Origin: Patescibacteria group bacterium | GTDB lineage: Bacteria; Patescibacteriota; Dojkabacteria; J137 | DNA length: 64,000 nt | Reading direction: 5' to 3' | NCBI GenBank assembly: GCA_016861265.1 | Contig: BOLA01000001.1 | Span: 1,023,745 to 1,087,744 of the forward strand | Shown: piece after piece, positions 9,275 to 57,013 of the stretch | How the letters are laid out: each line of letters begins with the position of its first letter | Numbering within the stretch: the first letter of the stretch is position 1 | Program-made: the position numbers and the translations under genes | The notes under the pieces: generated by a model | Databases searched by the model: none | Told to the model about the DNA's origin: nothing | What the model saw: the letters and a program-made list of their open reading frames with translations, nothing else

Positions 9275-9285
9275 AATAGGATTAA

Positions 9286-9357
9286 AGGTGTTGGCGGGAA
9301 TCGAACCCGCGAATAGCAGTTTTGCAGACTGCCGCCTTACCACTTGGCCACAACACC
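9286..9357 (-). tRNA. tRNA-Cys (anticodon GCA), no encoded CCA
   Basis: Reverse complement GGTGTTG-TGGCCAAGTGGTAAGGCG-GCAGT-CTGCAAA-ACTGC-TATTC-GCGGGTTCGATTCCCGC-CAACACC-T. Acceptor and T stems are perfect; anticodon GCA; discriminator U73, as expected for Cys. Confidence 0.85.
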
Positions 9358-10020: not shown

Positions 10021-10067
10021 CTTAATTCTTTGTTATATAATTACCTATCAATTTAGTAAATACTTAT

Positions 10068-11072: not shown

Positions 11073-11075
11073 ATC

Positions 11076-11828
11076 ATGACTGAAAAAGTAATTCCCAAGC
11101 ATGTAGTTTTAATACCCGATGGAAATAGGCGTTGGGCGAGATCTAAAGGTTGGTTGGCTTATGTTGGCCACAGAAAGGCTGGCAGTTTAGAACGTATTGT
11201 CGAATTATTTTATGCATCTAAGCAGTTAGGCATACAATACTTATCGGTATGGGGTTTTTCTACAGAAAACTGGGAAAGGGATTCAAAGGAAGTCGACGAA
11301 ATTTTTAAGGTACTCTTTAAAGCCTTGCATGGTTTAAAAGACTTAATGCACAAAGAGCATATAAGATTTAGACATTTAGGTAGAAAAGACCGACTGCCTA
11401 AGGATTTACTAGCTGCCATGAATAATCTTGAGGAAGATACTAAGGACTATACCGCCTTGAACTTTAATCTTCTGCTAGATTACGGAGGACGTACAAGTCT
11501 TATCGAAGCTGTTAATAGAATATTATCTAAGGGCTACACTCAAATTACCGAAAAAGAGCTAAAAGAGAACCTCGAAACAAATACTATCCCAGATCCAGAT
11601 CTAATTATTAGAACTTCTGGAGAACAACGAACAAGCGGTGTTTATGCCTTTGAAGGAACCTATGCAGAATTATATTTTACCGAAGTCTTATTCCCTGACT
11701 TTACACCTGTAGAATTTACAAAAGCTATAGATGAATTCTCTAAAAGAGTCAGAAGATTTGGTGGTACTAATAAAAAGGATCTAAAAAACATTAAAGATCA
11801 ATTAATTGATCCAGATAAATCGAGCTGA
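11076..11828 (+). CDS. uppS: undecaprenyl-diphosphate synthase (cis-prenyltransferase)
   Basis: HVVLIPDGNRRWA is the canonical UppS N-terminal motif; ...IRTSGEQRTSG... Confidence 0.85.
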   Translation: MTEKVIPKHVVLIPDGNRRWARSKGWLAYVGHRKAGSLERIVELFYASKQLGIQYLSVWGFSTENWERDSKEVDEIFKVLFKALHGLKDLMHKEHIRFRHLGRKDRLPKDLLAAMNNLEEDTKDYTALNFNLLLDYGGRTSLIEAVNRILSKGYTQITEKELKENLETNTIPDPDLIIRTSGEQRTSGVYAFEGTYAELYFTEVLFPDFTPVEFTKAIDEFSKRVRRFGGTNKKDLKNIKDQLIDPDKSS

Positions 11829-12039
11829 GATCGCCTAGAGAAGTGTCTGCAAAATTTATTTTCTTCTAAAAATTACAAATACTTGTGAAAATACTATAGG
11901 TTTTTACAATTTTGTAAGAAAATTTGTGAAAACATATTGCATTAATATTTTTTATGCTCTACAATAACCAATATTATTTTCACAGAAATATATCTGTTTA
12001 ATGACAAGAAAGATTCAAACAAAATTGAATTGCGTTATT

Positions 12040-12232
12040 TATCCGCTTATTGCGGATGGTTCTTGTCGGATAGCTTAACTTTCGTTATTTCCGACAAGCC
12101 ACTATAAGAAGTGCAAGTGTCGGAAGAATTGATTACCTAATTAAAGACGTTGATATTCCTTATGGTAGCTTGTCGGGTGTAATGCCAGTTCGGCTTCACT
12201 CAGCTCGTTGACAATTCTTAAGGAGGTGTCTT
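12040..12232 (+). promoter_or_regulatory. structured 5' leader of the ABC exporter with alternative hairpins and a 25-codon uORF (12001-12078)
   Basis: tccgc-ttatt-gcgga hairpin. cttgtcgga(12062-70)/tccgacaag(12092-12100) form a 9-bp stem, and agcttgtcggg (~12169) could alternatively pair with the second arm. The uORF ATG 12001...TAA 12076 (MTRKIQTKLNCVIYPLIADGSCRIA) ends inside the first stem arm. A perfect SD AAGGAGG lies 9 nt before the GTG start. Confidence 0.3.
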
Positions 12233-14119
12233 GTGTCTAAGCATTACCGCCGTTCCCTGTACAAGGGTCAGTTCAAGCAGAACGCTCTTAGGAGTTTTCT
12301 GGCAATCCTTTGGGAGTACAGGAGTTTTATGTACTTTCCAGCATTGATGGTGTTGCTGCTCGAAGCGGCTCAAATGGGTGCAAGGGTTTTTATTTCTGAA
12401 ATCCTAGCACGAATTGAGCTGGCCGATTGGAGTGCACTAGGCGTTTTGTTGCTGAGCATGTTTTTGTATAACATGCTTACTCTTGCAATCGATGCAAAGA
12501 TGGTTCGCGTTGTAATTGAGCGAGTCGGCTACGACTTTGCATTTGCATACGAAAACAAGGTTCTAAGGCACGTAGCAAGACTGGGACACACATTCAATTC
12601 ATCTTTTCCTATCTCTGTAACCCTGGATAGGATAGCTAAAATCGAACGTGTGTCGGATCTAGTTGAACAGGGTTTCTGGACTTTGTTCAACAATGTTTTT
12701 CAGGGCATAATCAGTTTGATTGTGCTAAGCATTTATCTGCCTGCTGCCGTACCTGTGGTGCTTGTGGTGTTCTTTCTCTTCATAAGGTTTAACAACATTA
12801 TGATTGAGAAACAGGCTATTGTACGCAAACGCCGCAAGGATCGAGGTGAAGATAAGGCTGAAATTCGAATGCGTCTAGTTGCAGCCAATACGACACTGCT
12901 GTCCAATGGCGCATTGGAACGCACTGAGCAGACAGTCTTTAAAAGCTCCTCTCACCTAAAGCGTGTTGGAATTCTGGAGCTGATGCATGTACTTCGTGGA
13001 AATGGAATTATCCGCGATGTGCTGCTCTACTTTGGCCGTTTTGCGGTACTTGCCTTTGCGGTTAGTATGGCTCAGGCTAAGGTAATCGATATTCCCCGCC
13101 TTGTGCTGGTCTACACCGTTTCCGAAACCATGTTCATTGGAATGTGGGGTGTGGTTCGCTTTGTGTACTCGTTCATGTACGAAAGTCCATCAATTCTCAA
13201 GATTGATGAACTCATGCAGATTACACCGACAGTAGTGGAACCTGTAAATCCTGTATCAATTCCTGCTGGTCCGTTAGGGTTTGCATTCAACGATGTAAAC
13301 TTCACGTATCGTGGAATTGAGATTCAAGGTAAAAAGCAGGTTGATCCATACTTTGGCGAAAATCTAGCTCGAGCAAACCATTTAAGGCAACAACTCGGTG
13401 TTCACCCCTATCAGGTAAAAAAGGCTGAAGAACAGCCTTTGCATTTGTGCGGAGTGAACTTAAACATTATGCCAGGGCAGAAGGTTGCCTTGGTAGGACA
13501 TAGTGGCGCAGGTAAGAGCACACTGTCACTGCTGCTTTCTAAGCTTCAGGTGCCTGACTGCGGTCAACTGCTTGTTAACGGAGTGCCGATCGAGCAACTC
13601 GATGGCTACGAACTGCGAAGCAGAATTGCCGTCGTGCCACAAGGTTCGAACGTAGACATATTCAATGACACCCTGTTGCATAACATTACACTTGGCGACG
13701 AGCGTTTTGAAGTGGCAGATGTTATTGAAGCCCTAAAGGTAGCGGAGCTTTGGAACACTGTTCTGGAGTGGCCGCTAATGCTCTACGAAACAATCGGTGA
13801 ACGCGGCAGAACTTTATCGGGAGGTCAGCAGCAGCGGGTTGCAATCGCAAGAGCAGCAATACGTAAGCCTGATCTCATTATTCTAGATGAAGCTACAAGC
13901 GCACTCGATACCGAAACCGAACGTCTGGTTCAGGCTTCGCTTAATCGATTGCTGCAAGGTAGAACAGCAGTGATTATCGCTCATAGACTTTCTACAATCA
14001 AAGACGCGGACATGATTGTAGTAATGCGCGATGGTTCAATCGGCGAAATGGGAACTTGGGACGAGCTTGTACATACGGAAGGAGATTTTGCAAAGCTCGT
14101 TAAGGCACAAACTCTTTAA
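12233..14119 (+). CDS. ABC exporter, fused permease + ATPase (GTG start); GC content far above surroundings
   Basis: Six-TM N-terminal half. NBD with Walker A GHSGAGKST, signature LSGGQQQRVAIARA and Walker B IILDEATSALD. A counted ~100-nt sample is about 52% GC, against about 30% in the flanks. Confidence 0.85.
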   Translation: MSKHYRRSLYKGQFKQNALRSFLAILWEYRSFMYFPALMVLLLEAAQMGARVFISEILARIELADWSALGVLLLSMFLYNMLTLAIDAKMVRVVIERVGYDFAFAYENKVLRHVARLGHTFNSSFPISVTLDRIAKIERVSDLVEQGFWTLFNNVFQGIISLIVLSIYLPAAVPVVLVVFFLFIRFNNIMIEKQAIVRKRRKDRGEDKAEIRMRLVAANTTLLSNGALERTEQTVFKSSSHLKRVGILELMHVLRGNGIIRDVLLYFGRFAVLAFAVSMAQAKVIDIPRLVLVYTVSETMFIGMWGVVRFVYSFMYESPSILKIDELMQITPTVVEPVNPVSIPAGPLGFAFNDVNFTYRGIEIQGKKQVDPYFGENLARANHLRQQLGVHPYQVKKAEEQPLHLCGVNLNIMPGQKVALVGHSGAGKSTLSLLLSKLQVPDCGQLLVNGVPIEQLDGYELRSRIAVVPQGSNVDIFNDTLLHNITLGDERFEVADVIEALKVAELWNTVLEWPLMLYETIGERGRTLSGGQQQRVAIARAAIRKPDLIILDEATSALDTETERLVQASLNRLLQGRTAVIIAHRLSTIKDADMIVVMRDGSIGEMGTWDELVHTEGDFAKLVKAQTL

Positions 14120-14662: not shown

Positions 14663-15355
14663 ATGGACTTAAAAATCGGTGATCTTTTTTACATAAAGGC
14701 AGATGGCAAATATTACGTATATAAACTACTAAGAATAGATTCTGAAACTGGAATTCATCATGTAATTGTATATCAGCCATACGAATATTCCCCAGACGAA
14801 ATTGATTTTAAAACTCTAGAAGTTTTAACAAAACATATTCCAATAGACACGCCAAAGGAATATAAAATTATTGGACATTCAGATGTTACTGAACAAGAAT
14901 TACAAGGTTTTTACGATTATCTAAAATTAACGGATTTTGCCAGATTCTTAGAAGAGACTGGTACTACAATTGAAGAAGTTATAAATACAGCAAACGGTTA
15001 CTTCATGGAAGCCGATAATGCTTATAAATCAGAAGAGTTTAGAGAGGCAATTCAAAAATATACTCAGGCAATAGAAGTTTACCCATTATTTTTTGAAGCA
15101 ATAGATAGACGAGCGTTTACAAAAATGGCTCTAGGTGAATTTTTAGATGCAATAAAAGACTTTGAATTTTCATTAATGGTTAATCCGGATTCTGTAATCG
15201 CAGAGTTTGCAATTGGAGAGTGTTATTTTAAATTAGGTGACTTTGAGAAAGCCGTGGAGCAATTTGAACATACAGCAAAACTTTATCCAGATGATGATTT
15301 AACAATGGAGTGGCTTGAATTAAGCAAACGTGAACTTGCACAATCGCAAGACTAA
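14663..15355 (+). CDS. TPR-repeat protein
   Basis: C-terminal half has TPR-like helices (AYKSEEFREAIQKYTQAIEVYP...AIKDFEFSLMVNPDS...GECYFKLGDFEKAVEQFEHTAKLYPDD). Confidence 0.55.
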   Translation: MDLKIGDLFYIKADGKYYVYKLLRIDSETGIHHVIVYQPYEYSPDEIDFKTLEVLTKHIPIDTPKEYKIIGHSDVTEQELQGFYDYLKLTDFARFLEETGTTIEEVINTANGYFMEADNAYKSEEFREAIQKYTQAIEVYPLFFEAIDRRAFTKMALGEFLDAIKDFEFSLMVNPDSVIAEFAIGECYFKLGDFEKAVEQFEHTAKLYPDDDLTMEWLELSKRELAQSQD

Positions 15356-15359
15356 AAAT

Positions 15360-16514
15360 ATGGACCTATCAGCAGATCAGCAAAATGCAATTACCACATT
15401 GCTTATGTGGTACAAAAATCCAAATAAATCTCCTTTTATTACACTAGGTGGTTATGCTGGTACGGGTAAGACCACTGTTATTTCGCTGTTAAGGAATCAA
15501 TTAAATGAAATTAATAAGACAATTTCCGTTTCCTTTTGCAGCTATACAGGTAAGGCTACTAGGGTGTTGGCGAATAGACTAAAAGATAACTCCTCTATTT
15601 ATCCTGCGGACACCGTAACAACAATACATTCTTTAATCTACACTGCACTTTTAGACGATTCTACTCAAGAAATAATAGGTTGGGAAAGAAAAAAGACACT
15701 GAACACGAATCTAATAATTGTAGACGAGGCTTCGATGGTAGATGAACAAATATGGCGAGATTTATTATCTTATAGAACTCCAATTATTGCTGTAGGTGAC
15801 CATGGACAGTTGCCTCCAATTAATTCGAGTTTTAACTTAATGGAAAATCCTAATCTTAAACTGGAACTAATCCATAGACAGGCAGAAAATAATCCAATTA
15901 TAGAGTTGTCCATAATGGCAAGAACTACGGGAGAAATACCAACAGGAAAATATGGACAAAATATTAAAAAATTTCTAAGGAGTGATTTTGATGCCTCTGA
16001 ATCAATTACTGAATTACTACAAAACTACAGAGAAGACACAATAATTCTATGTGGATTTAACACCACAAGGGTTAAGCTTAATAAATATGTGCGATCATCT
16101 TTGGGATTTGAAAGTCCCTTACCGGAAGCAAGAGATAGAGTTATTTGTTTAAAAAATAATAGAAAGAAAAATATATTTAATGGAATGCTTGGGAAGGTCT
16201 TATATGCAAATGATATTTTTGAATTTGCGTTAGAAATAGGTATAAAGATGGACTACGAGGATGATACATACGAAGGTAAAGTACTAAAGGAGCAATTCGG
16301 CTCAAAGGAAACTCTTACTAAAATGGCTAATAAAGAGTTAGATCTGTTCGATTTTGGATATGCACTAACAGTTCATAAATCACAGGGATCACAATCTAAA
16401 AGAGTAATTTTATTCGAAGAACGTGCGCAAGCAATGGACGATGCTATGTGGAAGAAGTGGCTTTACACTGCAGTAACCAGGGCTGAAGAAGAGCTTTTTA
16501 TTATTGGAAAATAA
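15360..16514 (+). CDS. RecD/Pif1/Dda-like SF1B DNA helicase (AAA_30 + UvrD_C_2)
   Basis: Walker A GGYAGTGKTT, Walker B IIVDEASMV, and C-terminal TVHKSQGSQSKRVILF. The track starts at GTG 15330 inside the TPR gene; the ATG at 15360, directly after the TPR stop, is the more likely start. Confidence 0.7.
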   Translation: MDLSADQQNAITTLLMWYKNPNKSPFITLGGYAGTGKTTVISLLRNQLNEINKTISVSFCSYTGKATRVLANRLKDNSSIYPADTVTTIHSLIYTALLDDSTQEIIGWERKKTLNTNLIIVDEASMVDEQIWRDLLSYRTPIIAVGDHGQLPPINSSFNLMENPNLKLELIHRQAENNPIIELSIMARTTGEIPTGKYGQNIKKFLRSDFDASESITELLQNYREDTIILCGFNTTRVKLNKYVRSSLGFESPLPEARDRVICLKNNRKKNIFNGMLGKVLYANDIFEFALEIGIKMDYEDDTYEGKVLKEQFGSKETLTKMANKELDLFDFGYALTVHKSQGSQSKRVILFEERAQAMDDAMWKKWLYTAVTRAEEELFIIGK

Positions 16515-31578: not shown

Positions 31579-33219
31579 ATGAGTAGACGTAATAAGATTT
31601 CTCCAAATCAAAGGCGCTTGTTCAGCATAGATGATAGCGATAATGTTACATATTTTTTGAACGGTTATCCTCAAACTCTGGAGCAACTTCAGCAAGGTGG
31701 GGATTTTGAAGATATTGATATATTTCTACAAGATACTTCATTAGATTTATTAGGCTATACGGATCAAATAGAAGCCATCCACGAAATTGCAAACCCTGAA
31801 AAAAAAGACGATAACACAGTGCAGTTGTCAATTTCGGATCTGGAAAAAATTAGGCGTATATTAACTGCAATTCCGCAGTTTAGAGATTTGGCAGCAGAAA
31901 AAAACGACGATATAGAATCAATTGAATTCCTAGCCGAAGCTGTGCAAACTATAGACTTTATGAGTCTGCCTCATTTTGATATCGATATGTCAATTTTCGA
32001 TGTGTTGGTTAAGAATAATCCTGAATATAGGGAATTTGTATTCGGAACACTAATGAGCCTTGTTAATGATATAGGCAGAAGTAATAAATTCCCTACCAGA
32101 AGGTATTTATCCAGGGTGTTTATTGACTTTACTGATAGTGAACTTGAAAAAGTTTATCAATTACTTAAAAGATTTTTAAGTATGTTAAATGCATGGGGGG
32201 GTATTCAAATACATTATTTTGAACAAACCGTAAGAGATTGGATGTATATAGTTTATGAACGCGGCGGGAATATGGATGTTGAGCAAATCTACAAATACTT
32301 GCAAACAAGGTATGCATGCAAGCCAGATTTTGAATTAAAGTATGTAGCAAATATGATTGCTAATTCAATATCATTTAATACAAACTTAGATGAGTTTGTG
32401 GATGAATTTATAAGATATATACATTGTTTTTCACCAGAAAAAAATATTTTCTTAACCCAAGAAGAAGTTTTCAGGTTGTGGACAAGTGAATTTCTAGTGC
32501 AAAGAATTAAGGATGCTGCACAAAAATGGAAGCATCGTATGTATGAATCAAGAGTTACAAGTCCAGAAGACGATTTAGAGGCGTATTTCGGAATTAGTAG
32601 AAGATTGTCTACAAGAGTTATGCAGAATCAACTGCCGCCAGAGGTCTGTTCAGAAGATTGCTTGAATGAATCGGTTATTAAACTAAAGATGTACTTTCCG
32701 GAGGGACATAGAACGCTTATCGAGGCAAGGCTCGATAGATTTATTAGAGTGAATGGTAGGGCTGAAATTTATGATTGGAAAACTAGGAAAAAGCAGATAG
32801 ATGAAATGAATGATTTTGAGAAGCTTCAAATTGTTTTGCAATGTATAGCACTACAAAATGTATTGGTGAGAACCTCGGAAGGTTCTATTTATACTCCTAT
32901 GGTTAATCAAGATTACAAGTTTTTTATTCAATCCACAAATCTAGAGTGGGTAAATTTACAAAGCCTGCCCAGTTTTTCACACATACCTGAGCAATCTGAA
33001 GGTCTATATGATTATGTTCAATTAAATATTGGTGAACAAGAGGCTCTTAGACTATTACAGAGTTTTTCTAGAATAGTTCATTTTTTAATTTGTAATAAAA
33101 AACAATTTGCAAGAATACGCCGTCACTTGAAAAATGTTGATAGTTACATTCCTGCTCCAAGGATCTTGGCACCGATATATGTTGAACAGAAAAATGTATT
33201 GGAACCGGTCGAAGCTTAA
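31579..33219 (+). CDS. hypothetical protein (546 aa), no recognisable motif
   Basis: Long ATG-start ORF with coding-like composition. By eye its GC looks slightly higher than the local average. Confidence 0.5.
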   Translation: MSRRNKISPNQRRLFSIDDSDNVTYFLNGYPQTLEQLQQGGDFEDIDIFLQDTSLDLLGYTDQIEAIHEIANPEKKDDNTVQLSISDLEKIRRILTAIPQFRDLAAEKNDDIESIEFLAEAVQTIDFMSLPHFDIDMSIFDVLVKNNPEYREFVFGTLMSLVNDIGRSNKFPTRRYLSRVFIDFTDSELEKVYQLLKRFLSMLNAWGGIQIHYFEQTVRDWMYIVYERGGNMDVEQIYKYLQTRYACKPDFELKYVANMIANSISFNTNLDEFVDEFIRYIHCFSPEKNIFLTQEEVFRLWTSEFLVQRIKDAAQKWKHRMYESRVTSPEDDLEAYFGISRRLSTRVMQNQLPPEVCSEDCLNESVIKLKMYFPEGHRTLIEARLDRFIRVNGRAEIYDWKTRKKQIDEMNDFEKLQIVLQCIALQNVLVRTSEGSIYTPMVNQDYKFFIQSTNLEWVNLQSLPSFSHIPEQSEGLYDYVQLNIGEQEALRLLQSFSRIVHFLICNKKQFARIRRHLKNVDSYIPAPRILAPIYVEQKNVLEPVEA

Positions 33220-33240
33220 TATAATTTTAATATATGCAAT

Positions 33241-33627
33241 ATGTCTTACTCCATTCTAAGTAGAAGAAGATTACATGAATTTGCTGAAGAGAGATCACAA
33301 CTTAGTGAGCTTGATACAAGACCACTACGATGCTCACATAACACTCATCTAAAGGGCTTAAAAGAATACGATGACACTGCATTCGGGCTACTGGTAACCG
33401 ATATTGAACACTATGCTTATCACTTAATCTTTAGAAAGGAACCTTACGTTATTGAGGTCCTAGGCTTAACTTATGAACAAAATTTATGGAGTCTAAACGA
33501 GATGTGGAAACAAATTATGTGGATCTCAGATAGTTTATGTTTAACTAAGGAGCAGGTACTGGAACAGGTAGAGAAAGCTAAGTTATATTGGTATGCAATG
33601 TTAGCAATTGATCCTATTGAGGCTTAA
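33241..33627 (+). CDS. hypothetical protein (128 aa)
   Basis: ATG-start ORF 21 nt after the 546-aa gene. Its 3' end overlaps the 3' end of the convergent helicase-nuclease by 14 nt. Confidence 0.45.
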   Translation: MSYSILSRRRLHEFAEERSQLSELDTRPLRCSHNTHLKGLKEYDDTAFGLLVTDIEHYAYHLIFRKEPYVIEVLGLTYEQNLWSLNEMWKQIMWISDSLCLTKEQVLEQVEKAKLYWYAMLAIDPIEA

Positions 33628-36600
33628 TTTCCTCCTCAATTTCGTTGAAGGTCTTACAGTATAGACATTCCTTACATGTTGGGTATTGCTCACTTCCAAA
33701 ATCCAAATTTCTTATTCTTGTTATAACATCTTTTATTTTCTCTTTTAAATCTGCAATATCTTCCGGAGTAATCTTAAATGATACACTTTTAAATTCTCCA
33801 TTGACTGCCGGCTTTAAATACTGAACAGTACTTTCAATTACTTTATAGTTGAGCATTGAATTAAATGGTTTAAAATTCTTATCCAAATCGGCAATTAATT
33901 TATAAAAAACTAATTGTCTAAATGTATCTCCCGTTGCGTTCTTATTCTCTCCCATTATTTCTTTCACTGATTTTGGTTTTGAAGTTTTATAGTCCACAAC
34001 TCTAACTTCGCCCCGAGTCTTATCTATCCACTCTATTCTATCTATCTTCCCACTTAATTTTAGTGGTTTAGTATTTTCATCCTCAAAATCCAATATTACA
34101 TTTTTGTTATTAAAACTATACTCAACATCCGCAGGTATACTAAACTCACCGTTGTAAAATTTATAATAGTCTTCAAGAATTTCTATGCCTTCCTCAAGTA
34201 TTACCTTATAATCATCAGGATCAATAATTTGTCTTTCTAAATTTGATATAAACATTTGAGTTAGGAACTCTAGATCTTTAGTCGTACCTTTAATTTGATT
34301 TCTTGCATATTGTTCTAAAGCATAGTGAATTGCAGTTCCTAATATTAAACTATTGTTTTTAGAATGGGGGGCATTTAGTAAATCCTCGAATTTAAATCTT
34401 AATGGGCAGTCAATGTACTTATTTAGTGAGGTAGCACTCAAGGAAAATCTATCTATCACCGAATTTAGGTACTCCTGCTCGGTGACTGAATACGGAGAAA
34501 AGCTATTGAATTTAAGCTTATTTAAGGCCTTTTGTTTATCAAATATATTTTCAGTTACCGCATTGACTTCTAGTAATTTATCTTGAAGTTCATTTATGAA
34601 CAAACTCGGTACTGTGGTCTTAACATTGTTGCCTTGAGGGTATTCTTTGGCATAGGTAATAAATAACTTTTCCTTTGCTCTTGTTAAGGCTACAAAGAAT
34701 AAACGTCTTTCGTCTTCGAGCTTATCCATTTTCAGACTTTCCGTGTCCTGTTCTCCCGTAAGATTATATATTTCGTCGGGCAGCGTGATTAATGAGCTAA
34801 CTTTTTTATTTCCCCACTTCTTATCCACACACTTTATTATGAATACATACTTATATTCTAATCCCTTTGACTTATGGGCCGTCATTAGGTTAACACCTTC
34901 TTTGTTTACCGAAACTTCAGTTTCTTGAATAGAAATAAAGTTATCTTCGAGTAATTTTAAATCTAATAGAAACTCCTCTAGCGATAGTTCTTTATTTGTT
35001 TGATTTATGCTTTTAACATACTCAAAAAAGGATTGAATCGAATTTATATTTTCAACATTATTTTGGATAAAGTAATGGTCCAAATAACCTGTTAAATCCA
35101 TTACCTTTTTAATAAAGTTGAGGAACATGTGATTAACTGAATCGCCCTTGAACTCCAATAACATTTCAGCAATATTATTAATTTTTTCTATTTCGGTAAT
35201 TCCGTTTAGTTGCAATTGCTCTTTATCCAGCATTAACTCAAATATACTTAGTCTTTTGTCATGGGCTATTTTTGTTAATTTAAAGCAATCGAGTCTTGAA
35301 ATCTTGAAAAATGGGTAGAAAATAATCTTAAAAATAATAGAGTCTCTATCTTTATCGGTGTAGCTAATTGCTTTTAGCAAGTTTATAAGCTGGATTACTG
35401 GTAATTGATTTAAAGAATTCTTCCCGGCAGCTAGTCTTACAGGTATATTGTTGTTTATTAAATCTAAGGCTATGTCCTCTCCATCCGAATGTTCTTTATA
35501 GAATATTGCAATATCAGAGTATTTAACTCCATTTGTTTCTAATTCTTTTATCTTATTAACTACGAAATTATTTTCTGCATCCTGGTTATTAAACTCAAAG
35601 ACTTCAGTTGGATGGTTAGGTATATTTAGACCCGCTTTTAGGTTCTTATTCAGACCCTCTATAAGTTTATTTAATCTTGCCTGATTATGGTCTACCAGTT
35701 TAGAAGATAAGTCTAAAATGTGTTGTGAAGATCGATAATTAATTGTGAGGCTAATAGTCTTTACGTCTTCAAATTGTTTTTTAAAGAAAAGTAAATTTTC
35801 GACGTTAGCTCCTTGAAATCTAAATATTGCTTGGTCGTCATCACCTACAGCAAATATATTGGGTCTTGTATCAAAGGAACCAAGAACCTTTAGAATTTCG
35901 TTTTGGGCACCATTAGTATCTTGATATTCATCTACAAGTATATATAAGTATTTTTCTTGAAGGCTAGCTAATAATTCGTCATCGGATTTTAGCTTGTCTA
36001 TTACAAATAGAATCATATCCTCGTAATCATAGAAGCCTTCCTCTGAAAGTGCATCGGTATACAACTGATATATTTCTGCCAACTCAAGATTCTTTGTGTA
36101 TTTATTTACTTTATCGGTATATTTACCTAACGGTTTACCGGTTTTCTTATTTAGTTCCGGATTTGCCTTTAACTCTTCTAGGACTTCTTCACAGATAGCT
36201 TTTAGTTCACTGGCTTTCTTGCCTTCTCTTTTGAGTGTTTGTATGCTGTCCAGAATGCTTTTTTGGTAGTAATACTTATCTCCGAAGGTAACTAACGAAG
36301 ACTTTCCGGTTTCTGCAACCTTATCAATAATTGATCGTATAATTTTAATTTTATTTAAATCGTCCAGTTGCTTAAGTTCTTTTTTGAATACAAATTTTTC
36401 GGGATTACTTTGAATTACATCGTTACAGAAGCTATGGAAAGTAAAGATTTTTACATACAGAGCGTCGTTACCTATAAGACCTAATAGTCTATTTCGCATA
36501 GCGTTTACACCAGAATCGGTGAAGGTTAGGCACAATATATTCTGTGATGATGCGTCTGTTTTGCTAAGTATATTGGCTATTCTATAGCTTAGAACCTGAG

Positions 36601-36712
36601 TCTTACCTGTTCCAGGCCCTGCTATAACTAAAACTGGTCCATCTATAGTGTTTACAGCTTCCTGCTGAGAAGGGTTCAGTCCTTTAATTTGTTCGTCAAG
36701 ATTAATCTTCAT
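33614..36712 (-). CDS. UvrD/PcrA-like SF1A helicase fused to a C-terminal RecB-family PD-(D/E)xK nuclease with Cas4/AddB-type Cys cluster
   Basis: N-terminus LNPSQQEAVNTIDGPVLVIAGPGTGKTQVLSYRIANIL (Walker A) and VDEYQDTN (motif II). C-terminus GKIDRIEWIDKTRGEVRVVDYKTSK (RecB nuclease motif), an upstream Cys (YIDCPLRF) and a terminal TCKECLYCKTF. Confidence 0.75.
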   Translation of the reverse strand: MKINLDEQIKGLNPSQQEAVNTIDGPVLVIAGPGTGKTQVLSYRIANILSKTDASSQNILCLTFTDSGVNAMRNRLLGLIGNDALYVKIFTFHSFCNDVIQSNPEKFVFKKELKQLDDLNKIKIIRSIIDKVAETGKSSLVTFGDKYYYQKSILDSIQTLKREGKKASELKAICEEVLEELKANPELNKKTGKPLGKYTDKVNKYTKNLELAEIYQLYTDALSEEGFYDYEDMILFVIDKLKSDDELLASLQEKYLYILVDEYQDTNGAQNEILKVLGSFDTRPNIFAVGDDDQAIFRFQGANVENLLFFKKQFEDVKTISLTINYRSSQHILDLSSKLVDHNQARLNKLIEGLNKNLKAGLNIPNHPTEVFEFNNQDAENNFVVNKIKELETNGVKYSDIAIFYKEHSDGEDIALDLINNNIPVRLAAGKNSLNQLPVIQLINLLKAISYTDKDRDSIIFKIIFYPFFKISRLDCFKLTKIAHDKRLSIFELMLDKEQLQLNGITEIEKINNIAEMLLEFKGDSVNHMFLNFIKKVMDLTGYLDHYFIQNNVENINSIQSFFEYVKSINQTNKELSLEEFLLDLKLLEDNFISIQETEVSVNKEGVNLMTAHKSKGLEYKYVFIIKCVDKKWGNKKVSSLITLPDEIYNLTGEQDTESLKMDKLEDERRLFFVALTRAKEKLFITYAKEYPQGNNVKTTVPSLFINELQDKLLEVNAVTENIFDKQKALNKLKFNSFSPYSVTEQEYLNSVIDRFSLSATSLNKYIDCPLRFKFEDLLNAPHSKNNSLILGTAIHYALEQYARNQIKGTTKDLEFLTQMFISNLERQIIDPDDYKVILEEGIEILEDYYKFYNGEFSIPADVEYSFNNKNVILDFEDENTKPLKLSGKIDRIEWIDKTRGEVRVVDYKTSKPKSVKEIMGENKNATGDTFRQLVFYKLIADLDKNFKPFNSMLNYKVIESTVQYLKPAVNGEFKSVSFKITPEDIADLKEKIKDVITRIRNLDFGSEQYPTCKECLYCKTFNEIEEEIKPQ

Positions 36713-43808: not shown

Positions 43809-44612
43809 ATGGAATCAATAATTATAGATAATGTAAAAATTACTCATCCAAATAAGGTATTGTTTCCTGAGTCAGGTATTACTAAGCTTGACCTGATAAA
43901 TTATTATAAAAGTGTATCAGATAAATTTATAAAGGAAGTAATGAATAGGCCAATAAGCATGGTAAGAAGTCCTAATGGAATTAAAGGTCCCAAATTCTAC
44001 CAGAAACACCCTACCGAATCCTTTCCCGAATACGTAGAAAGAGTCAAGATAAAAGAAAAAGATGAATACGATGCTTATATAACTATAGATCAATTGAACG
44101 ATATTTTATATTTAGTAAATATTGGTGTATTAGAATTTCACATCTGGGGTAGCAAAATTCAAGATATTGAAACCCCAGACAGAATTATCTTTGACTTAGA
44201 TCCATCAAATCAAGACGACTCAAAATTAAGGGAGCTAGCATTACTCATAAAAAAAATACTTGAAGATAATGGCTATAAGCCGCTCCTAAAGACTTCCGGT
44301 TCTAAAGGCTTTCATGTTTACGCCGATGTTAGCGAAAGAAGATTCTCCTGGGACGATATTAAACTTATTTCTAAGACAATTGCAGAATCTATTGTAAGAA
44401 TAAATCCCAAGGAATATACAATTGAATTTAGAAAGGAAAAGAGACAAGAAAAAATATTTATTGATTATTTAAGAAATGAACGAGGGTCGACTATGGTCGC
44501 ACCCTACTCCATTAGAATTAAGGAACACGCTCCCATTTCAATGCCTATAAGCTGGAGTGAACTAAAAAATATAAGTCCACAAAGCTATAACATAAATAAC
44601 TATAAAAAATAG
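43809..44612 (+). CDS. stand-alone LigD-type polymerase domain (archaeo-eukaryotic primase, NHEJ PolDom)
   Basis: All three AEP motifs are present: I IIFDLDPS, II LKTSGSKGFHVY, III IFIDYLRNERGSTMVAPYSIR. The N-terminus ...THPNKVLFPESGITKLDLINYY... matches LigD Pol. Confidence 0.8.
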   Translation: MESIIIDNVKITHPNKVLFPESGITKLDLINYYKSVSDKFIKEVMNRPISMVRSPNGIKGPKFYQKHPTESFPEYVERVKIKEKDEYDAYITIDQLNDILYLVNIGVLEFHIWGSKIQDIETPDRIIFDLDPSNQDDSKLRELALLIKKILEDNGYKPLLKTSGSKGFHVYADVSERRFSWDDIKLISKTIAESIVRINPKEYTIEFRKEKRQEKIFIDYLRNERGSTMVAPYSIRIKEHAPISMPISWSELKNISPQSYNINNYKK

Positions 44613-45781: not shown

Positions 45782-47014
45782 TTGTTCGAACCCATACCCT
45801 CAAAATTTAGACCGGAGACTCTAGATGAATTTATTGGACAACAGCATTTGGTGGGGAAAGGCATGCCTATTCGTAATTTTATTGAATCAGGTAATATTCC
45901 ATCAATGATATTTTGGGGACCTCCTGGAACAGGTAAGACTACGCTTGCAAATATTATTTCTAAAAGTGTTAATGCGAATATCCATAAATTATCCGCGGTC
46001 ATGGCAGGAAAAACTCAGTTAATGGAAATTGTTGATCAGGCTATTCACGAAAATAAAGATAATAAACTATTTGAACCTAAAAAAACAATTTTATTCCTAG
46101 ATGAAATTCACAGATGGAATAAATCTCAACAAGACTCGCTATTGCCTTATGTGGAAAAAGGAATAATTATATTGATTGGAGCAACAACAGAAAATCCATC
46201 ATTCTCATTAAATCCTGCTTTACTATCAAGAGCCAGAGTATTTACATTTAAAAAACATACATCAGAAGATGTAAAAAAATATCTGCTTTATTTAATAGAG
46301 AAGGTAAAACTAGAAACACCAACCCTGGATTACGATCCCGATGTTATTGAACTAATTGCAAAGTCTTCTGATGGAGACTTAAGAACATCGGGCAATATTT
46401 TAGAAACTGCAATTTATTTATCTAATGGCAATAAGATAAATAAAGACACCTTAAAGAATGCATTGGAAAACTTTCTTCAATACGAAAAAACCGGTGAGGA
46501 TCACTACAATATAATATCTGCAGTTCATAAATCACTGCGAGACTCCGATGCCACCGCTGCAGTTTACTGGGTAGTGCGAATGTTGCAGGCTGGAGACGAT
46601 CCTCTTTATATCTGCAGAAGGTTACTAAGGTTTGCTTCCGAGGATATAGGTAACGCTATGCCAAATGCGGTAGTGCTTGCCAACTCTGTGTTTGAATCAT
46701 GTCAAAAACTGGGTCGACCTGAGTGTGATATTTTTATTGTACAGCTAGTAGAATATTTAGCTAAGGCGCCCAAAAGTAATGCGGCTTATCTAGCATTGGC
46801 ACAAGCTCAATCCGATGTTTCGGAATTTGGTTCATTGCCGGTACCATTAAATATTCGCAATGGTGTTACAAAGTTAATGAAGGATTTAGGTTACGGCAAG
46901 GGGTATAAATACGCTCATGACTTTAAAAATGCCAAAGTGAACCAACAGCACCTACCCGATGAACTTAAAAATAGAAATTACTTTAAGCAGGAAATAAAAA
47001 AGGAAGACAATTAA
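45782..47014 (+). CDS. rarA: replication-associated recombination protein A (AAA+ ATPase)
   Basis: Walker A MIFWGPPGTGKTTLA, Walker B ILFLDEIHRWNKSQQD and a MgsA C-terminal domain. The track start is TTG. Confidence 0.85.
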   Translation: MFEPIPSKFRPETLDEFIGQQHLVGKGMPIRNFIESGNIPSMIFWGPPGTGKTTLANIISKSVNANIHKLSAVMAGKTQLMEIVDQAIHENKDNKLFEPKKTILFLDEIHRWNKSQQDSLLPYVEKGIIILIGATTENPSFSLNPALLSRARVFTFKKHTSEDVKKYLLYLIEKVKLETPTLDYDPDVIELIAKSSDGDLRTSGNILETAIYLSNGNKINKDTLKNALENFLQYEKTGEDHYNIISAVHKSLRDSDATAAVYWVVRMLQAGDDPLYICRRLLRFASEDIGNAMPNAVVLANSVFESCQKLGRPECDIFIVQLVEYLAKAPKSNAAYLALAQAQSDVSEFGSLPVPLNIRNGVTKLMKDLGYGKGYKYAHDFKNAKVNQQHLPDELKNRNYFKQEIKKEDN

Positions 47015-51819: not shown

Positions 51820-53610
51820 ATGCAAAGATTGTTAGAAAAGATTAATGCCCATCCAAGGGCTACACTTATTGCGGTCGGAACAACTGTTTTCGGAGCCGCC
51901 GCATTAGTTATTTTACTTATGTTCCTTTCGTTAAGAGAGAGTGTTGTTAACCCCACTGTAACTCCAGAAGAGGAAAAAATGGTTTTATCCGAGGTTATAA
52001 AGAACAATCCAAGTGGAGTTATTAATAATCCAGGTAATTCAAGCACACCGATGCCTTCACCTAACCCTACACCTGTGCCAACACCAAACCCTACACCAGG
52101 TGTAGTGAATCCGAATCCTGAGACTCCTCAGCCAGAACAACCAGTGGCCCCAAATATAAATGAGTATAACTATAGAGTTACTAGGGTTACTAACCAAAGA
52201 GGTCCATCCTTTGATGCATGCCAAATGTATTATGGCGGAGGTTATGGTTATGGACCGGATGTAACAGAAAGCGATTCAGTATCTGAATATTATGAATATT
52301 TTGAAAGATACGTGAGCATTTATAAGAATCAAACAAAAGAAGATAATAAATTATCCTCTTACTACTTAAGCAAGTATGGAAGAAATGTTAATTCAACAAC
52401 ATATTACCTAGGAGGTAGTTATGCTGTAGAGAATTCTTATAAACCGTATGATCAATTTGATAATCAGCAAGACACTCAAGTTGTCTCTTACCCTACTTAT
52501 ACTGCTGACGAATATATTAAGTTATATTTTGGTTCCAATGCATCTGTTACAGGTGTTGAAACTGATTCAAATGGAGTTAAACACTATACAATAAGAAGCA
52601 GTTATACTTCTTATTGTGATCCGTCTTACGAGCAATACCTAGTTAGTGATGTAGTTCCACCGGCTTTAAGAACTATTTATTCAGTTTATAGAGTTAACGG
52701 TCAAACCTTCTCAATAGAACAAATAAAGACTTACATTGATGAAGTAAAAGATGCGAATTTAATTAAGGTATCAACTACAGAATCAACAAGATCTAAGGTA
52801 ACTTACACTCAAGTAGAGGCTCAGTTTAGGATTGCTTCTAATGTTCCGATAACAAAAAATGATTATAGTCATATTACATATAACTACGATCCTCTAAAAT
52901 CAATTAGGGATAATCTAACGTATCTTGCCATGATAAATGACGATATTTTATTACCATCTTCTACAGAAGGCCTTACAAATTTATGGGTAGATGGTTATGT
53001 GGATGCTAATTATGTAAATTCCACAGAATTCTATCAGGATAGAGACTTTTTCCCTGACTCTGACTGGGGAGATGAATTATATGCAAGATATAATACATCT
53101 GCTAATTATGTTAATAAGACATTGTATTCGATATCAATAACTCCTGAGTATGGTAAATACTACTCTATTTCTGCATATAAAGATGATCAACTATTTGATG
53201 ATATTATTTCAGAATTAATGAAGGGTACTGCTACTTCTAAGAGTATTGAAGATATTACAATAAATGTATCGGGTTTACCTGTAGAAGGTAAGAAGATTTC
53301 TAAAGTATTTACATATAAATTCCCAACATCCTACGGTGTATCTTACCCTGTATCTTATAGCTCAGATTCAAATACTAATTATTTTACTAACTATGTATTT
53401 GAGTACAATGGGAGAGTTTATGGCGTAAGCTACTATAGTTACAACCAACAAATGGATTTAGATATGAATGAATATAGTATTTATCCACTAACAACAGAAC
53501 TTGAAGCAGAAACAATGAGGAATTTGTTAACAGATATGTGGTCTAGGTATTTACAAATAGTAAATCCTGTTAGCTACCCTACGAGTTTTCCAGTAAGTTA
53601 TTCTTACTAA
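51820..53610 (+). CDS. secreted or membrane-anchored Pro/Thr-rich, Tyr-rich protein with C-terminal (V)SYP(V/T)S(Y/F) repeats
   Basis: Signal anchor AVGTTVFGAAALVILLMFLSL. Linker PSPNPTPVPTPNPTPGVVNPNPETPQPEQPVAPN. Repeats SYGVSYPVSYSS and VSYPTSFPVSYSY near the C-terminus. Confidence 0.55.
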   Translation: MQRLLEKINAHPRATLIAVGTTVFGAAALVILLMFLSLRESVVNPTVTPEEEKMVLSEVIKNNPSGVINNPGNSSTPMPSPNPTPVPTPNPTPGVVNPNPETPQPEQPVAPNINEYNYRVTRVTNQRGPSFDACQMYYGGGYGYGPDVTESDSVSEYYEYFERYVSIYKNQTKEDNKLSSYYLSKYGRNVNSTTYYLGGSYAVENSYKPYDQFDNQQDTQVVSYPTYTADEYIKLYFGSNASVTGVETDSNGVKHYTIRSSYTSYCDPSYEQYLVSDVVPPALRTIYSVYRVNGQTFSIEQIKTYIDEVKDANLIKVSTTESTRSKVTYTQVEAQFRIASNVPITKNDYSHITYNYDPLKSIRDNLTYLAMINDDILLPSSTEGLTNLWVDGYVDANYVNSTEFYQDRDFFPDSDWGDELYARYNTSANYVNKTLYSISITPEYGKYYSISAYKDDQLFDDIISELMKGTATSKSIEDITINVSGLPVEGKKISKVFTYKFPTSYGVSYPVSYSSDSNTNYFTNYVFEYNGRVYGVSYYSYNQQMDLDMNEYSIYPLTTELEAETMRNLLTDMWSRYLQIVNPVSYPTSFPVSYSY

Positions 53611-53617
53611 TTAAATA

Positions 53618-53652
53618 GCACGTAATACAGCGGGCCTCGTAAAGAGGCCCGC
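53618..53652. terminator. bidirectional rho-independent terminator between convergent genes
   Basis: gcgggcctc-gtaaa-gaggcccgc followed by tttgtttgtt; an A-run lies upstream. Confidence 0.7.
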
Positions 53653-53673
53653 TTTGTTTGTTATATTATTTTA

Positions 53674-54588
53674 TTATCTTTCTAGTTCTGTAACTATATC
53701 TCTTAATTCTGCAGCCTTCTCAAATTCCAGCATATCTGCAAATAGCTGCATTTGGAATTTTATTTCTTTTAAGAGCTTCTTCTGATCCGATTTACTCATT
53801 GCTCTAAATCCTTCAGCTTTTTTAACAATATCTTGTTCTTTTTCCTCATCGGACATATTTTCATTAGATTGTTCTGAGAATGCCGAAAGCTGATCTTTTA
53901 TTTCTTTGACTATAGTTCTAGGAGTTATTCCATGAGCCTTATTAAACTCATCTTGTATTTTTCGTCTTCTACGTGTCTCTTCAATCGCGAATTGCATCGA
54001 ATCTGTGATCTTATCGGCATACATTATTACTCGACCTTCCTGGTGCCTTGCAGCTCTACCAATAACCTGAATTAAGCTGGTCCTTGACCTTAGAAAACCT
54101 TCTTTGTCTGCATCTAAAATTGCTACTAAGGATACCTCCGGTAAGTCTAATCCTTCCCTTAATAAGTTTATGCCAACTAATACATCGTAAACTCCTAGTC
54201 TTAAGTCTTTTAGAATTCGCACTCTTTCCATTGAATCGATGTCGGAGTGTAGGTACTTAGCCTTAATTCCCTTCTCAGTTAAGTAATCGGAAAGCTCCTC
54301 GGACATTCTTTTTGTTAGTGTTGTAACTAGTACTCTTTGTTTCTTTTCTACTGTTTTATCAATTTCATCTATTAGATTAGGTACTTGAGGTTGTGACCAA
54401 GAAGATTCATTCAATATTGGCATCTCAGTAAAACCCTTTTCTATAAGGTTTTTCTTTAGGTTCTCGAAGGTTTCAGGTAACGATGGTCTTACTTCTACTA
54501 TAGGATCCAAAAGACCTGTCGGTCTAATTATTTGGTAGACAATTCCATTGTAGTCTTTTGGTAGTGTACTCATGCCTAATTTTAACAT
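53674..54588 (-). CDS. uvrB: UvrB C-terminal half only (helicase domain 3 + UvrC-interacting UVR domain); N-terminal ~410 aa absent
   Basis: [17 protein letters not shown]...[27 protein letters not shown]...VIGRAARH... and the C-terminal UVR helix-hairpin ...[24 protein letters not shown]. The dcd stop is only 27 nt upstream, so there is no room for the Walker-A N-terminal half. Confidence 0.7.
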
Positions 54589-54615
54589 TAAATGTCTACC
54601 CTAATAGGTATACTG

Positions 54616-55179
54616 TTAACGTTTTTTGTTAGATTTTTTACTTTCAATATCTTTAAATACTCTGCTGCCAACAGTATCTTTTTGTCCTTGATATTTACCT
54701 ACATAAGGACTCTCGGCATGGTCATCCATAAAACAGAATACAAACTGACAAATTCGTCTATTTTTCTCTAAGATTATTGGAAGAGAATTAGCATTGTAAA
54801 GTTCCAATGTAACCTTTCCCTTAAAACCTGGATCTACCCAACCTGCATTTTGAATAAACAGGCCCATTCTACCTATTGAACTTCTTCCTTCAACAAATGC
54901 GGTAATGTTATCCGGTAATTCAATATACTCTACTGTTGTAGCTAGTATAAAACTATGAGCGGGTATTGTTATGGAGTCCTTAACTACTTTTCTGTAAATA
55001 ATTTCATCACTCATACTAATTGCACTCATAGCAGAGCTGTCAATTTCTAAGAATGTATCTCCTAACCTACAATCAATAGATGCTGGTTGAATTGATTGTT
55101 CGTTTATTGGATCTACAACTAAGTCACCTGATTTTATGAGTTTCTTTAAAGTTTTATCTGAAATAATCATACTAAACAA
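54616..55179 (-). CDS. dcd: dCTP deaminase
   Basis: ...SIQPASIDCRLGDTF...GRSSIGRMGLFIQNAGWVDPGFKGKVTLELYN... matches the Dcd/dUTPase-fold signature. Confidence 0.85.
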   Translation of the reverse strand: MFSMIISDKTLKKLIKSGDLVVDPINEQSIQPASIDCRLGDTFLEIDSSAMSAISMSDEIIYRKVVKDSITIPAHSFILATTVEYIELPDNITAFVEGRSSIGRMGLFIQNAGWVDPGFKGKVTLELYNANSLPIILEKNRRICQFVFCFMDDHAESPYVGKYQGQKDTVGSRVFKDIESKKSNKKR

Positions 55180-55186: not shown

Positions 55187-57013
55187 TTATGTTCTATCCC
55201 TGAATGCTACCGGATCGTTGTAATCGAATTCAGCAATTTGAGCATACAGTCCTGCCAAGGAAGGATCGGTTTCTAGGGTATCAATCATTTTTGCAACAAT
55301 GTCGGCGTTTGATTGATCGTTGCCCGGTGTGCTTCTCTGATCAAGAAAATAATCTAAATGTGCAGGTGAAGCACTTAGGTGCATTCGGGTATTATGCCCT
55401 AAAGGCAGTAATTTTCGTATTAAATGCAAATCGGTATTAGGAAATCTCTGTCTTAGGAAGTTATAAAAATCCATGACTCTTGTATAGTAAATATTGGCAT
55501 CTGCGGCCCATTCTGCCCTAAGATGCTGTAATCCTGTAGTTTCAACTATCTTAGAACTCATATTAAATCCTTCACTAATCATAGCTTCGTAGTCTACCTG
55601 ACCGTCGTGTGCATAATCAATTTGAGAAAGGAATGCTATATCTTGTCTTCCAAATGTTCTATGTCTGTTTAAATCTCTTAATTGTGCAATAGCTGTATTC
55701 AAAACAAATATTCTATCGCCTCTAATATCACCTAGATTCCCCATTTTCTCGTGTCTAGTGTGGCCTTTAAATACAATAATACTAAGAGCTCTAATTTGAT
55801 TAGCGTCCAGACAACCTAACCATTCCAAAACTACTTCTTCAGTTAGTCTAGGGTATGCTACTAGTATATATTGCATTATGGTTAATATTCCTACCGAAGT
55901 TTTATCTATTACGCTTACTTGAGTTTCTCTTACATAGTATGCAGGACCCATTTTGGTACTTTCAAGTAGATCGCTAAAGCCAGGCATTTCAATTATGGCA
56001 GTCTTTAGTTCAGCGATATTTTCCCTGATCCTAAAGGTAGGTTCGGTGTGCTTAATTAGTGGTTCAAGATTAGCATTTACATCTTTTCCTTCTTCGGTGT
56101 TGCTTAGAGATAGTGCTGCTTTTATTTGTTTTGCTAATTCAATGTACTCTTCTTCTCCAGTTTCTTGAAGAATCTTAATATAGTTATTCCATATTCTTAA
56201 ATTACCAAGTAAACACATTGAAGTTGTTGCCCCCATAGGAATCCAGCTTCGAACAACATCAAGTATTCTTGCTTTTAAAGTGCTATCTTCAATTGGACTA
56301 TCACCTTCCTCGAATTGAGCTTTGTAACCTTCTTCAATTAGTGCATACCACTTCTTATAATTATTTTCGGCTAATTGAAGAATGTCTAACCATTCCTGTT
56401 GAATATGCTCTAAGTCTTCTCTTGCCTCTTGGGGAATTGCAGATAAATCTAAAAAGCCTTCAATTTTAGGGAAATTCATTCTGGAAAACTTTACATATCT
56501 ACTTGAGCTTTCCTGGCCGTCTCCATACCATAATCTATTAAATATCCAGTATGCCTGTTCCAAGGGAATATTATTAAAGAACAGGAATACAGGAATCATT
56601 CCTAGTATTGACTGATGTCCGTAATTTAATCCAAATTCCTTAATCTTTTCAGCAGCAGCTGCAGGATCCATTTTTACAAGCTCTAAAACTTCATCAAATA
56701 TTTCTTCGTATGATTTTCTAGTTCTAGAAGTTCTAGCACCCGACCAAGCGGAGAAAATATGTTTATCTATACCTCCTTCGGACTTAGGTTCGCTAAAAGG
56801 GAAAAAAGATACAATCGGTTTTGTGTCGTCTGGTTCACCATCTTGATCTATTCGTTTGACTTGATATAAAAGGTTTCTTTCTTCGCCATCTATATTTCGT
56901 GTTACAACATCAATTGCATAAGGGTACTCTTGTGGAGTTTGTTCATCGAGAGTTAAGACCTTGTCGGCCATAGCTTGGAAGAATAAAAGGTATCTGACTA
57001 TTCTAAAGCTCAA
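55187..57013 (-). CDS. hypothetical 608-aa protein; C-terminal ~200 aa weakly resembles flavin-dependent thymidylate synthase (ThyX)
   Basis: NRHRTFGRQD... (RHR motif region) and LLPLGHNTRMHLSASPAHLDYFLDQR aligned to ThyX ...LPLxxxTRxxxxxNARSLxxFLxLR.... Its start is 8 nt upstream of the dcd stop, so co-transcription is likely. The ThyX assignment is tentative. Confidence 0.3.
   Translation of the reverse strand: MSFRIVRYLLFFQAMADKVLTLDEQTPQEYPYAIDVVTRNIDGEERNLLYQVKRIDQDGEPDDTKPIVSFFPFSEPKSEGGIDKHIFSAWSGARTSRTRKSYEEIFDEVLELVKMDPAAAAEKIKEFGLNYGHQSILGMIPVFLFFNNIPLEQAYWIFNRLWYGDGQESSSRYVKFSRMNFPKIEGFLDLSAIPQEAREDLEHIQQEWLDILQLAENNYKKWYALIEEGYKAQFEEGDSPIEDSTLKARILDVVRSWIPMGATTSMCLLGNLRIWNNYIKILQETGEEEYIELAKQIKAALSLSNTEEGKDVNANLEPLIKHTEPTFRIRENIAELKTAIIEMPGFSDLLESTKMGPAYYVRETQVSVIDKTSVGILTIMQYILVAYPRLTEEVVLEWLGCLDANQIRALSIIVFKGHTRHEKMGNLGDIRGDRIFVLNTAIAQLRDLNRHRTFGRQDIAFLSQIDYAHDGQVDYEAMISEGFNMSSKIVETTGLQHLRAEWAADANIYYTRVMDFYNFLRQRFPNTDLHLIRKLLPLGHNTRMHLSASPAHLDYFLDQRSTPGNDQSNADIVAKMIDTLETDPSLAGLYAQIAEFDYNDPVAFRDRT

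Follow-up and report, generated by a model that had tools for sequence, protein, structure and literature searches.

Does a gene that encodes only half of the DNA-repair helicase UvrB mark the loss of a repair pathway, or is it one part of an enzyme now made in two pieces? UvrB is normally one chain, and its ATP site is formed between its own two RecA-like domains. The question arose from a 304-aa ORF, here termed uvrB-C, in a 64,000-nucleotide stretch of DNA (hereafter the window, meaning the whole stretch analysed) from the Dojkabacteria, which are ultra-small CPR bacteria. An initial annotation made from the letters and ORF translations proposed either a split uvrB with its N-terminal half elsewhere or nucleotide-excision repair in the course of being lost. 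Here, we report that uvrB-C is the C-terminal half of UvrB, intact and under strong conservation, and that in a large Dojkabacteria clade the N-half that matches it has a gene of its own, at a distance of tens to hundreds of kilobases. In our judgment, uvrB-C is very probably the C-terminal subunit of a two-gene UvrB that was split in the ancestor of this clade and whose halves would reassemble non-covalently.

The uvrB-C gene and its surroundings

Pfam assigned residues 72–182 of uvrB-C to Helicase_C (E=1e-21) and residues 189–231 to UvrB (PF12344, E=5e-24), followed by a UVR domain (Table 1) whose two helices are predicted at residues 266–285 and 289–303. With E. coli UvrB as query (b0779, taken from NC_000913), tblastn of the 64-kb window matched residues 397–665 to positions 54576–53683 with 47% identity (E=1e-71), and residues 1–396 had no match anywhere in the window. 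UvrB chains in the PDB matched uvrB-C at E=4e-81. The AlphaFold model of uvrB-C (pLDDT 79) superposed on UvrB crystal structures at 2–2.6 Å over approximately 215 columns, and the top Foldseek matches of the model were all UvrB. Pfam and tblastn thus bear out the first reading of the ORF as a C-terminal UvrB half with helicase motifs IV–VI and the UvrC-binding domain. Consistent with that reading, the N-terminal domains are missing: Walker A/B domain 1a, the beta-hairpin and the UvrA-binding domain 2 are found neither in the ORF nor in the window. In relatives they reside on a separate protein of 405–434 aa. The accompanying statement that domain 1a is missing needs qualification, since its Walker part is gone but its last strand is kept within residues 9–23. 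An alternative in-frame ATG (M6) at 54573 would yield a protein of 299 aa with a more family-typical N-terminus.

Residues 15–35 of uvrB-C align to residues 406–426 of Bacillus subtilis UvrB, and residues 67–303 align to 429–658. Between them lies a helical insertion that is missing from E. coli and Bacillus UvrB. The same insertion is carried by full-length Dojkabacteria UvrBs and therefore predates the split. In the model of isolated uvrB-C, the insertion region (residues 31–70) has block-mean pLDDT values of 94–97, with helices at 38–50 and 57–60.

Table 1. Features of the uvrB-C locus, in window positions
Feature	Position	Strand	Basis
GC-rich hairpin between uvrB-C and convergent 596-aa ORF, likely terminator	53629..53653	.	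10 pairs, 8 G-C
uvrB-C, C-terminal subunit (very probable) of split UvrB, 304 aa	53674..54588	-	ORF, Pfam, tblastn, PDB, Foldseek
UVR domain (PF02151), domain 4, UvrC-binding helical hairpin, residues 270–303	53680..53781	-	Pfam E=3.8e-5
Domain 3 (second RecA-like domain, helicase motifs IV–VI) and UvrB C-terminal region, residues 67–231	53896..54390	-	
Dojkabacteria-specific helical insertion of 31 aa, start of domain 3, residues 36–66	54391..54483	-	
New N-terminus, proposed docking strand, residues 9–23	54520..54564	-	conservation and models
dcd/uvrB-C spacer, 27 nt	54589..54615	-	AGGG at 54602–54599, 10 nt before ATG
dcd (dCTP deaminase), directly upstream of uvrB-C	54616..55179	-	Pfam DCD E=5e-43
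Long ThyX-like gene, head of putative thyX-dcd-uvrB-C unit	55187..57013	-	Pfam Thy1 E=1e-9

The position of the dcd stop 27 nt upstream of the uvrB-C ATG, as initially annotated, can be read directly off the sequence. The annotated start also stands, with AGGG upstream of the ATG. The terminator assigned to uvrB-C is less straightforward: the hairpin starts 20 nt past the uvrB-C stop, but its T-run lies on the plus side, so that formally it terminates the convergent 596-aa ORF. It may work in both directions. Gene order from dcd to uvrB-C is identical in five assemblies, and the two genes are probably co-transcribed. Gaps of 7–27 nt, together with a promoter-like TTGACA-18-TAGAAT motif at 57029–57000 ahead of the ThyX-like gene (11/12 matches in a promoter scan), suggest that thyX-like, dcd and uvrB-C form one transcription unit. 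At 594–608 aa, the ThyX-like protein is over double the normal length of a ThyX, and its weak Thy1 match is confined to residues 95–300. This linkage of three genes is confined to close relatives of the window. Across species, the neighbourhoods of the C-half vary, and the N-half does not adjoin it in those examined. Rfam and tRNA scans at the uvrB-C locus found nothing.

Several neighbours were recorded in their own right. The convergent ORF (51820–53610, plus strand) has a Pro/Thr-rich N-terminal tract and a Tyr/Ser/Asn-rich body; it has no Pfam match and is kept beside uvrB-C in close relatives L002 and L004. Within 10 kb of uvrB-C, Pfam identified a protein with a LigD-type primase-polymerase domain (43809–44612) and a MgsA/RarA-type AAA+ ATPase (45782–47014). 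An AddA-like UvrD helicase with a PD-(D/E)XK nuclease (1032 aa, 33614–36712, minus strand) lies near a 546-aa PD-(D/E)XK protein (31579–33219, plus strand), and the region 31579–36712 thus places a recombinational-repair helicase-nuclease in the same window as uvrB-C. A short RecD/PIF1-like SF1 helicase (394 aa, 15330–16514, plus strand) overlaps a 230-aa TPR protein (14663–15355) by 26 nt. Finally, a tRNA-Ser(GGA)/tRNA-Cys pair at 9184–9357 has as its neighbour a 254-aa protein whose C-terminal domain is of the Abi_C (abortive infection) type (region 8170–9357, minus strand).

C-half and N-half genes across the Dojkabacteria

Homologues of uvrB-C were sought among 5.8 billion proteins, and the best 120 matches were considered. 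These were 259–329 aa long and 62–100% identical, with 115 of the 120 falling within 290–310 aa, and those bearing a source name came from Candidatus Dojkabacteria or Patescibacteria. At least 115 clusters of C-half homologues of about 298 aa are distributed across Candidatus Dojkabacteria. All begin alike, with M, then 1–16 residues, then a conserved LPxxYxG segment. A protein at least 90% identical to uvrB-C, P0479, is carried by a 1,114,243-bp chromosome. In an exhaustive search of 1.84 billion representatives at 50% identity, the whole C-half family was one representative, P0114 (408 bits), and the next real match scored 276 bits, a drop that indicates the absence of any full-length protein with a C-half of the P0114 type. 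The top-ranked representative in this search, P0121 (763 aa, four matched stretches), was rejected as a repeated-contig artefact carrying the same C-terminal sequence twice. Because most short matches among the representatives were metagenomic fragments, we make no claim of split UvrB outside the Dojkabacteria. A locus search with the full C-half alignment caught universal UvrB motifs and returned unrelated full-length UvrBs on IMG/VR contigs (L013–L048), which were left out. One genome per GTDB species was also scanned with the motif E[VI]RPSLPET, specific to the domain-3 insertion of this lineage, giving 14 loci.

One of these 14 loci, L060, has an unsplit 711-aa UvrB (P0270) with the same insertion and a long linker, YVSATPSEYELNISRQSASKTETKTESGLAADYPGIVEQIIRPTG. 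L060 is one of several Dojkabacteria-type contigs (with L049, L051–L053, L057 and L058) titled 'uncultured Candidatus Saccharibacteria bacterium', labels that look generic or wrong. The N-terminal 416 aa of the L060 protein, and then an alignment of its stand-alone matches, served as queries for N-halves. At least 107 clusters of stand-alone N-halves were recovered, 395–445 aa long, with ResIII, UvrB_inter (domain 2) and UvrB_3rd domains and without Helicase_C. They stop within the linker, 14–39 aa past the SATP motif, and show no variation in Walker A (GATGTGKT), DESH or the hairpin motif YYDYYQPEAY. Among the N-half loci of the main split clade (L063, L067–L083), every one that reaches far enough upstream has an HhH-GPD glycosylase 1–4 kb from the N-half. 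Alanyl-tRNA synthetase and a staphylococcal-type nuclease are close by in most of these loci, and a P-type ATPase in some.

Both halves occur together in single genomes. On contig CAYMSO010000002.1 (151,094 bp, GCA_964393185.1), N-half P0386 (137,523–138,761) and C-half P0050 (78,225–79,118) are encoded on the same strand 58.4 kb apart. On a 1,140,724-bp chromosome, N-half P0390 lies at 805,379–806,617 and C-half P0031 near 1,086,122–1,086,994 on the opposite strand, a separation of about 280 kb provided that sequence and orientation agree between the ENA and NCBI records. Six further N/C pairs were recognized, five by longest contigs of identical size (1,193,217 for P0399/P0019, both in run SRR12762303; 1,149,470; 202,872; 169,298; and 98,125) and one by a common locus-tag prefix (Kow0081_3620 and Kow0081_0250). 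Pairwise identities within the two sets of halves run in parallel, for example 99.8/90/87.5/86% for N-halves versus 99.7/88/87/86% for C-halves. Both halves of the split pair are under purifying selection and co-diverging.

Neither the Dojkabacteria N-half nor its usual neighbours had a tblastn match in the 64-kb window. Four N-half clusters (P0417, P0418, P0376 and P0412) belong to a clade mirroring the C-half clade of the window, and all come from other sequencing runs. The proposal of a split uvrB with its N-half elsewhere is strongly supported for the lineage, in which both halves share contigs or chromosomes; for the genome of the window, its 64 kb contain none, and we infer that this genome also holds an N-half.

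Selection on the C-half and alternative explanations

A first alternative is that the C-half has taken on a new role in which the N-half plays no part, perhaps that of a UvrC-binding adaptor or of the motor subunit in another complex. The halves are indeed unlinked and belong to different transcription units, with thyX-like and dcd on one side and HhH-GPD glycosylase, nuclease and alanyl-tRNA synthetase on the other. The residues that are kept argue otherwise. R506, D510, R540 and R543 are essential in Bacillus UvrB, and F527 is a DNA-stacking residue (PMC3458569); their counterparts in uvrB-C (R144, D148, R178, R181 and F165, respectively) are all invariant in the family alignment. The invariant motif VI arginines and the R506-D510-R540-R543 network need a facing Walker A/B domain. 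Moreover, the divergence of the two halves is tightly correlated, and the former linker end has gained conservation rather than losing it. The L, P, Y, G, V and Q of this segment are 95–100% conserved in 115 C-halves, versus 41–91% in 92 full-length relatives, and mean conservation of the segment is 0.80 in split versus 0.56 in full-length proteins, compared with 0.90 versus 0.84 for a core block. A role apart from the N-half therefore appears improbable.

Alternatively, a full-length uvrB could reside elsewhere in the genome, leaving uvrB-C as an extra C-terminal copy with an accessory role, a possibility that the initial annotation had named as its own refutation. Other Dojkabacteria do have full-length UvrBs, and the window covers 64 kb of the genome. 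The phylogenies speak against such a duplicate. Neighbour-joining trees were built from simple, and hence crude, distances (88 taxa, 394 columns and 100 bootstraps for the N part), and the N-part and C-part trees alike place full-length and split proteins in distinct clades. Monophyly of the main split clade is recovered in 100/100 bootstraps for the N part and in 73/100 for the C part, and its sister group in the N-part tree consists of mostly full-length Dojkabacteria UvrBs. Among the matches listed, no full-length protein has a longest contig of the same size as that of a split half, whereas seven N/C pairs agree in this way, five by size alone and two also by location. The N-halves of the clade themselves end at the matching point. 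Given the separate clades and the lack of a matching full-length contig among the matches listed, we regard a duplicated fragment as decidedly unlikely.

Could uvrB-C instead be a decaying remnant, the leftover 3' half of a disrupted uvrB in a lineage losing nucleotide-excision repair? CPR genomes are reduced, and no N-half, uvrA or uvrC was found in the window or in the relatives' flanks searched, a small sample; tblastn for UvrA and UvrC in the 64-kb window and 44 relatives' loci (0.5 Mb, small and redundant) gave only generic ABC ATPase matches. Selection on the gene tells a different story. In a codon-level comparison with the closest DNA, that of L049, uvrB-C has dN=0.064, dS=2.0 and dN/dS=0.032; against L051, dN/dS is 0.036, and against more distant relatives synonymous sites are saturated. 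The gene is under strong purifying selection. At least 115 intact homologues with a common start point, at 62–100% identity, arginine fingers and DNA-contact residues that do not vary, and intact N-halves in relatives likewise contradict decay. Relaxed selection, a disrupted frame and a patchy distribution, by which a pseudogene would be recognized, were not seen in uvrB-C. With dN/dS of about 0.03 against saturated synonymous sites, essential domain-3 residues kept and conservation throughout the clade, the earlier suggestion that repair is being lost finds no support and is very unlikely.

An assembly or sequencing artefact, such as a frameshift or chimeric join at 54588–54620, would be conceivable in a window that stems from a metagenomic assembly, and misassembly had been named as a further refutation. 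An identical 304-aa protein, with dcd and the long ThyX-like gene upstream, is nevertheless present on five contigs from five different sequencing runs, and the same architecture recurs in dozens of species, closed chromosomes included. Agreement of five independent assemblies excludes misassembly. A frameshift or read-through origin of uvrB-C was also considered; end lengths and the 27-nt spacer after dcd rule it out. Split-intein trans-splicing, a known route to reassembling split replication and repair proteins, has a negligible chance of restoring a covalent full-length UvrB here, since the ends of the two halves together merely sum to the native linker, which spans 21–92 aa after SATP in full-length relatives, and leave no room for an N-intein of about 100 aa and a C-intein of about 35 aa.

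Probable fission, proposed reassembly and comparison with known systems

We propose that the variable linker past helicase motif III (SATP) is where uvrB broke, in an ancestor shared by a large clade of Dojkabacteria. One resulting gene, of about 412 aa, would have kept Walker A, the DESH box, the beta-hairpin, domain 1b and the UvrA-binding domain 2. The other, of about 298 aa, would have kept the last domain-1a strand, the helical insertion, the second RecA-like domain with its arginine fingers, and the UvrC-binding UVR domain. Later dispersal would have carried the pair to distant parts of the genome. Living Dojkabacteria include full-length, adjacent-split and dispersed-split forms. The adjacent state is seen in L084 (NPID01000250.1, a 507,870-bp contig; 10001–12344), where a 419-aa N-half and a 296-aa C-half sit side by side on one strand, and in a second assembly, L085. 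The L084 halves occupy different frames, and the 193-nt spacer between them is AT-rich and begins with the hairpin GTGGCGtagtCGCCAC. The L084 C-half begins MKNKLPKNYNGIVEQ and falls among full-length sequences in the C-part tree (93/100). The second group of stand-alone N-halves to which this lineage belongs (P0338, P0359, P0364 and P0365) likewise sits among full-length lineages and joins the main clade in 0/100 bootstraps; the same linker thus seems to have been broken at least twice. Three more N-halves (P0353, P0325 and P0306) are singletons. These placements suggest an independent second fission at the same linker in the L084 lineage. In P0124, a UvrB of 829 aa that is full-length and belongs to a different AT-rich lineage, about 150 aa are inserted between SATPQEYELINS and GITQQIIRPTG, at the very point where Dojkabacteria uvrB is split. 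The post-SATP linker is intrinsically permissive.

How the halves might meet is suggested by the new N-terminus. In the model of a full-length relative (pLDDT 85), SATP is followed by a helix (397–409), an ordered linker, the strand IVEQ (425–428; block-mean pLDDT about 92) and IIRPTG. In the isolated uvrB-C model, residues 15–23 are without secondary structure, with block-mean pLDDT of 64–77. The conserved Glu of VEQ has become Tyr in 92% of the split clade. We take domain 3 of Bacillus caldotenax UvrB to start at about residue 415, past the strand equivalent to IVEQ. The beta-strand ahead of domain 3 places the break inside the last structural unit of domain 1a rather than cleanly between domains. 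Raised constraint on the new N-terminus, together with a strand that forms only in the full-length model, leads us to propose beta-strand complementation as the mode of N/C association. This predicted association draws on differences in secondary structure and pLDDT and on the domain boundaries of B. caldotenax UvrB. By docking into the N-half, the conserved strand at the start of the C-half would complete the RecA-like sheet there and restore the composite ATP site that the two RecA-like domains form between them. The older helical insertion, modelled with block-mean pLDDT above 94, may add surface to the N/C contact. The heterodimer would then act as a normal UvrB, loaded by UvrA, verifying damage with its hairpin and recruiting UvrC through its UVR domain; repair activity of the assembled halves would be expected on this scheme.

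A more speculative extension holds that fission was recurrent and adaptive, with at least two breaks in the linker, one leaving the genes adjacent and one ending in their dispersal. With uvrB-C, the motor and UvrC-binding subunit, in a dTMP-synthesis unit and the N-half, the damage-sensing subunit, beside a base-excision glycosylase, repair might be gated through subunit stoichiometry and nucleotide supply. We consider this doubtful. Were it correct, the split would serve regulation and would not be a neutral accident, and it would be a natural demonstration of an SF2 helicase core rebuilt by beta-strand complementation.

Returning to the reading that we favour, a two-gene UvrB would show that this motor can withstand being severed after motif III and ahead of the final strand in its first RecA-like domain, and the docking element could serve an engineered split or conditionally assembled UvrB. 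There are also consequences for annotation. C-halves are currently labelled 'UvrB/UvrC motif-containing protein' and N-halves 'DEAD/DEAH box helicase family protein [Candidatus Dojkabacteria]', and CPR pathway surveys will consequently miscount nucleotide-excision repair as absent or degraded. Few essential genes of ultra-small bacteria are catalogued as split, and Dojkabacteria uvrB would add a clean, datable fission to them.

To our knowledge, no case of a naturally split UvrB has been described, and a search of the literature on split or fissioned UvrB, and on UvrB in Patescibacteria or Dojkabacteria, yielded no description of such an arrangement. As far as the literature searched extends, a naturally split UvrB is previously unreported; the gene itself is real and ordinary-looking, and its architecture is unusual. 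Relative to canonical single-chain UvrB (E. coli b0779; 1D9X, 2D7D, 2FDC and 3UWX), identity is 47–61% over domains 3 and 4. The C-half keeps motifs IV–VI, the equivalents of F527, R506, D510, R540 and R543, and the UVR hairpin, while the N-halves of relatives keep Walker A, DESH, the hairpin and domain 2. The split form differs in consisting of two polypeptides from unlinked genes, in the 31-aa helical insertion that opens domain 3, and in its LPKNYxGIVYQ N-terminus with the Glu-to-Tyr switch. Closer still are the full-length UvrBs of sister Dojkabacteria (P0270 in L060; P0331 of WS6 OLB20), which have the same insertion and a long, variable post-SATP linker and are 60–70% identical to the split halves in both parts; in contrast, they are one chain of 700–720 aa, and the segment before IIRPTG is far less constrained. 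The adjacent split uvrB of L084 breaks in the same linker as that of the main clade, yet keeps VEQ where the main split clade has VYQ, and its halves are adjacent rather than dispersed. Beyond UvrB, the nearest parallel is the split reverse gyrase of Nanoarchaeum equitans, an essential multi-domain nucleic-acid enzyme made from two dispersed genes and presumed to reassemble non-covalently. Dispersed genes and an ultra-small episymbiont-type genome are common to both cases, although the protein and the domain of life are different.
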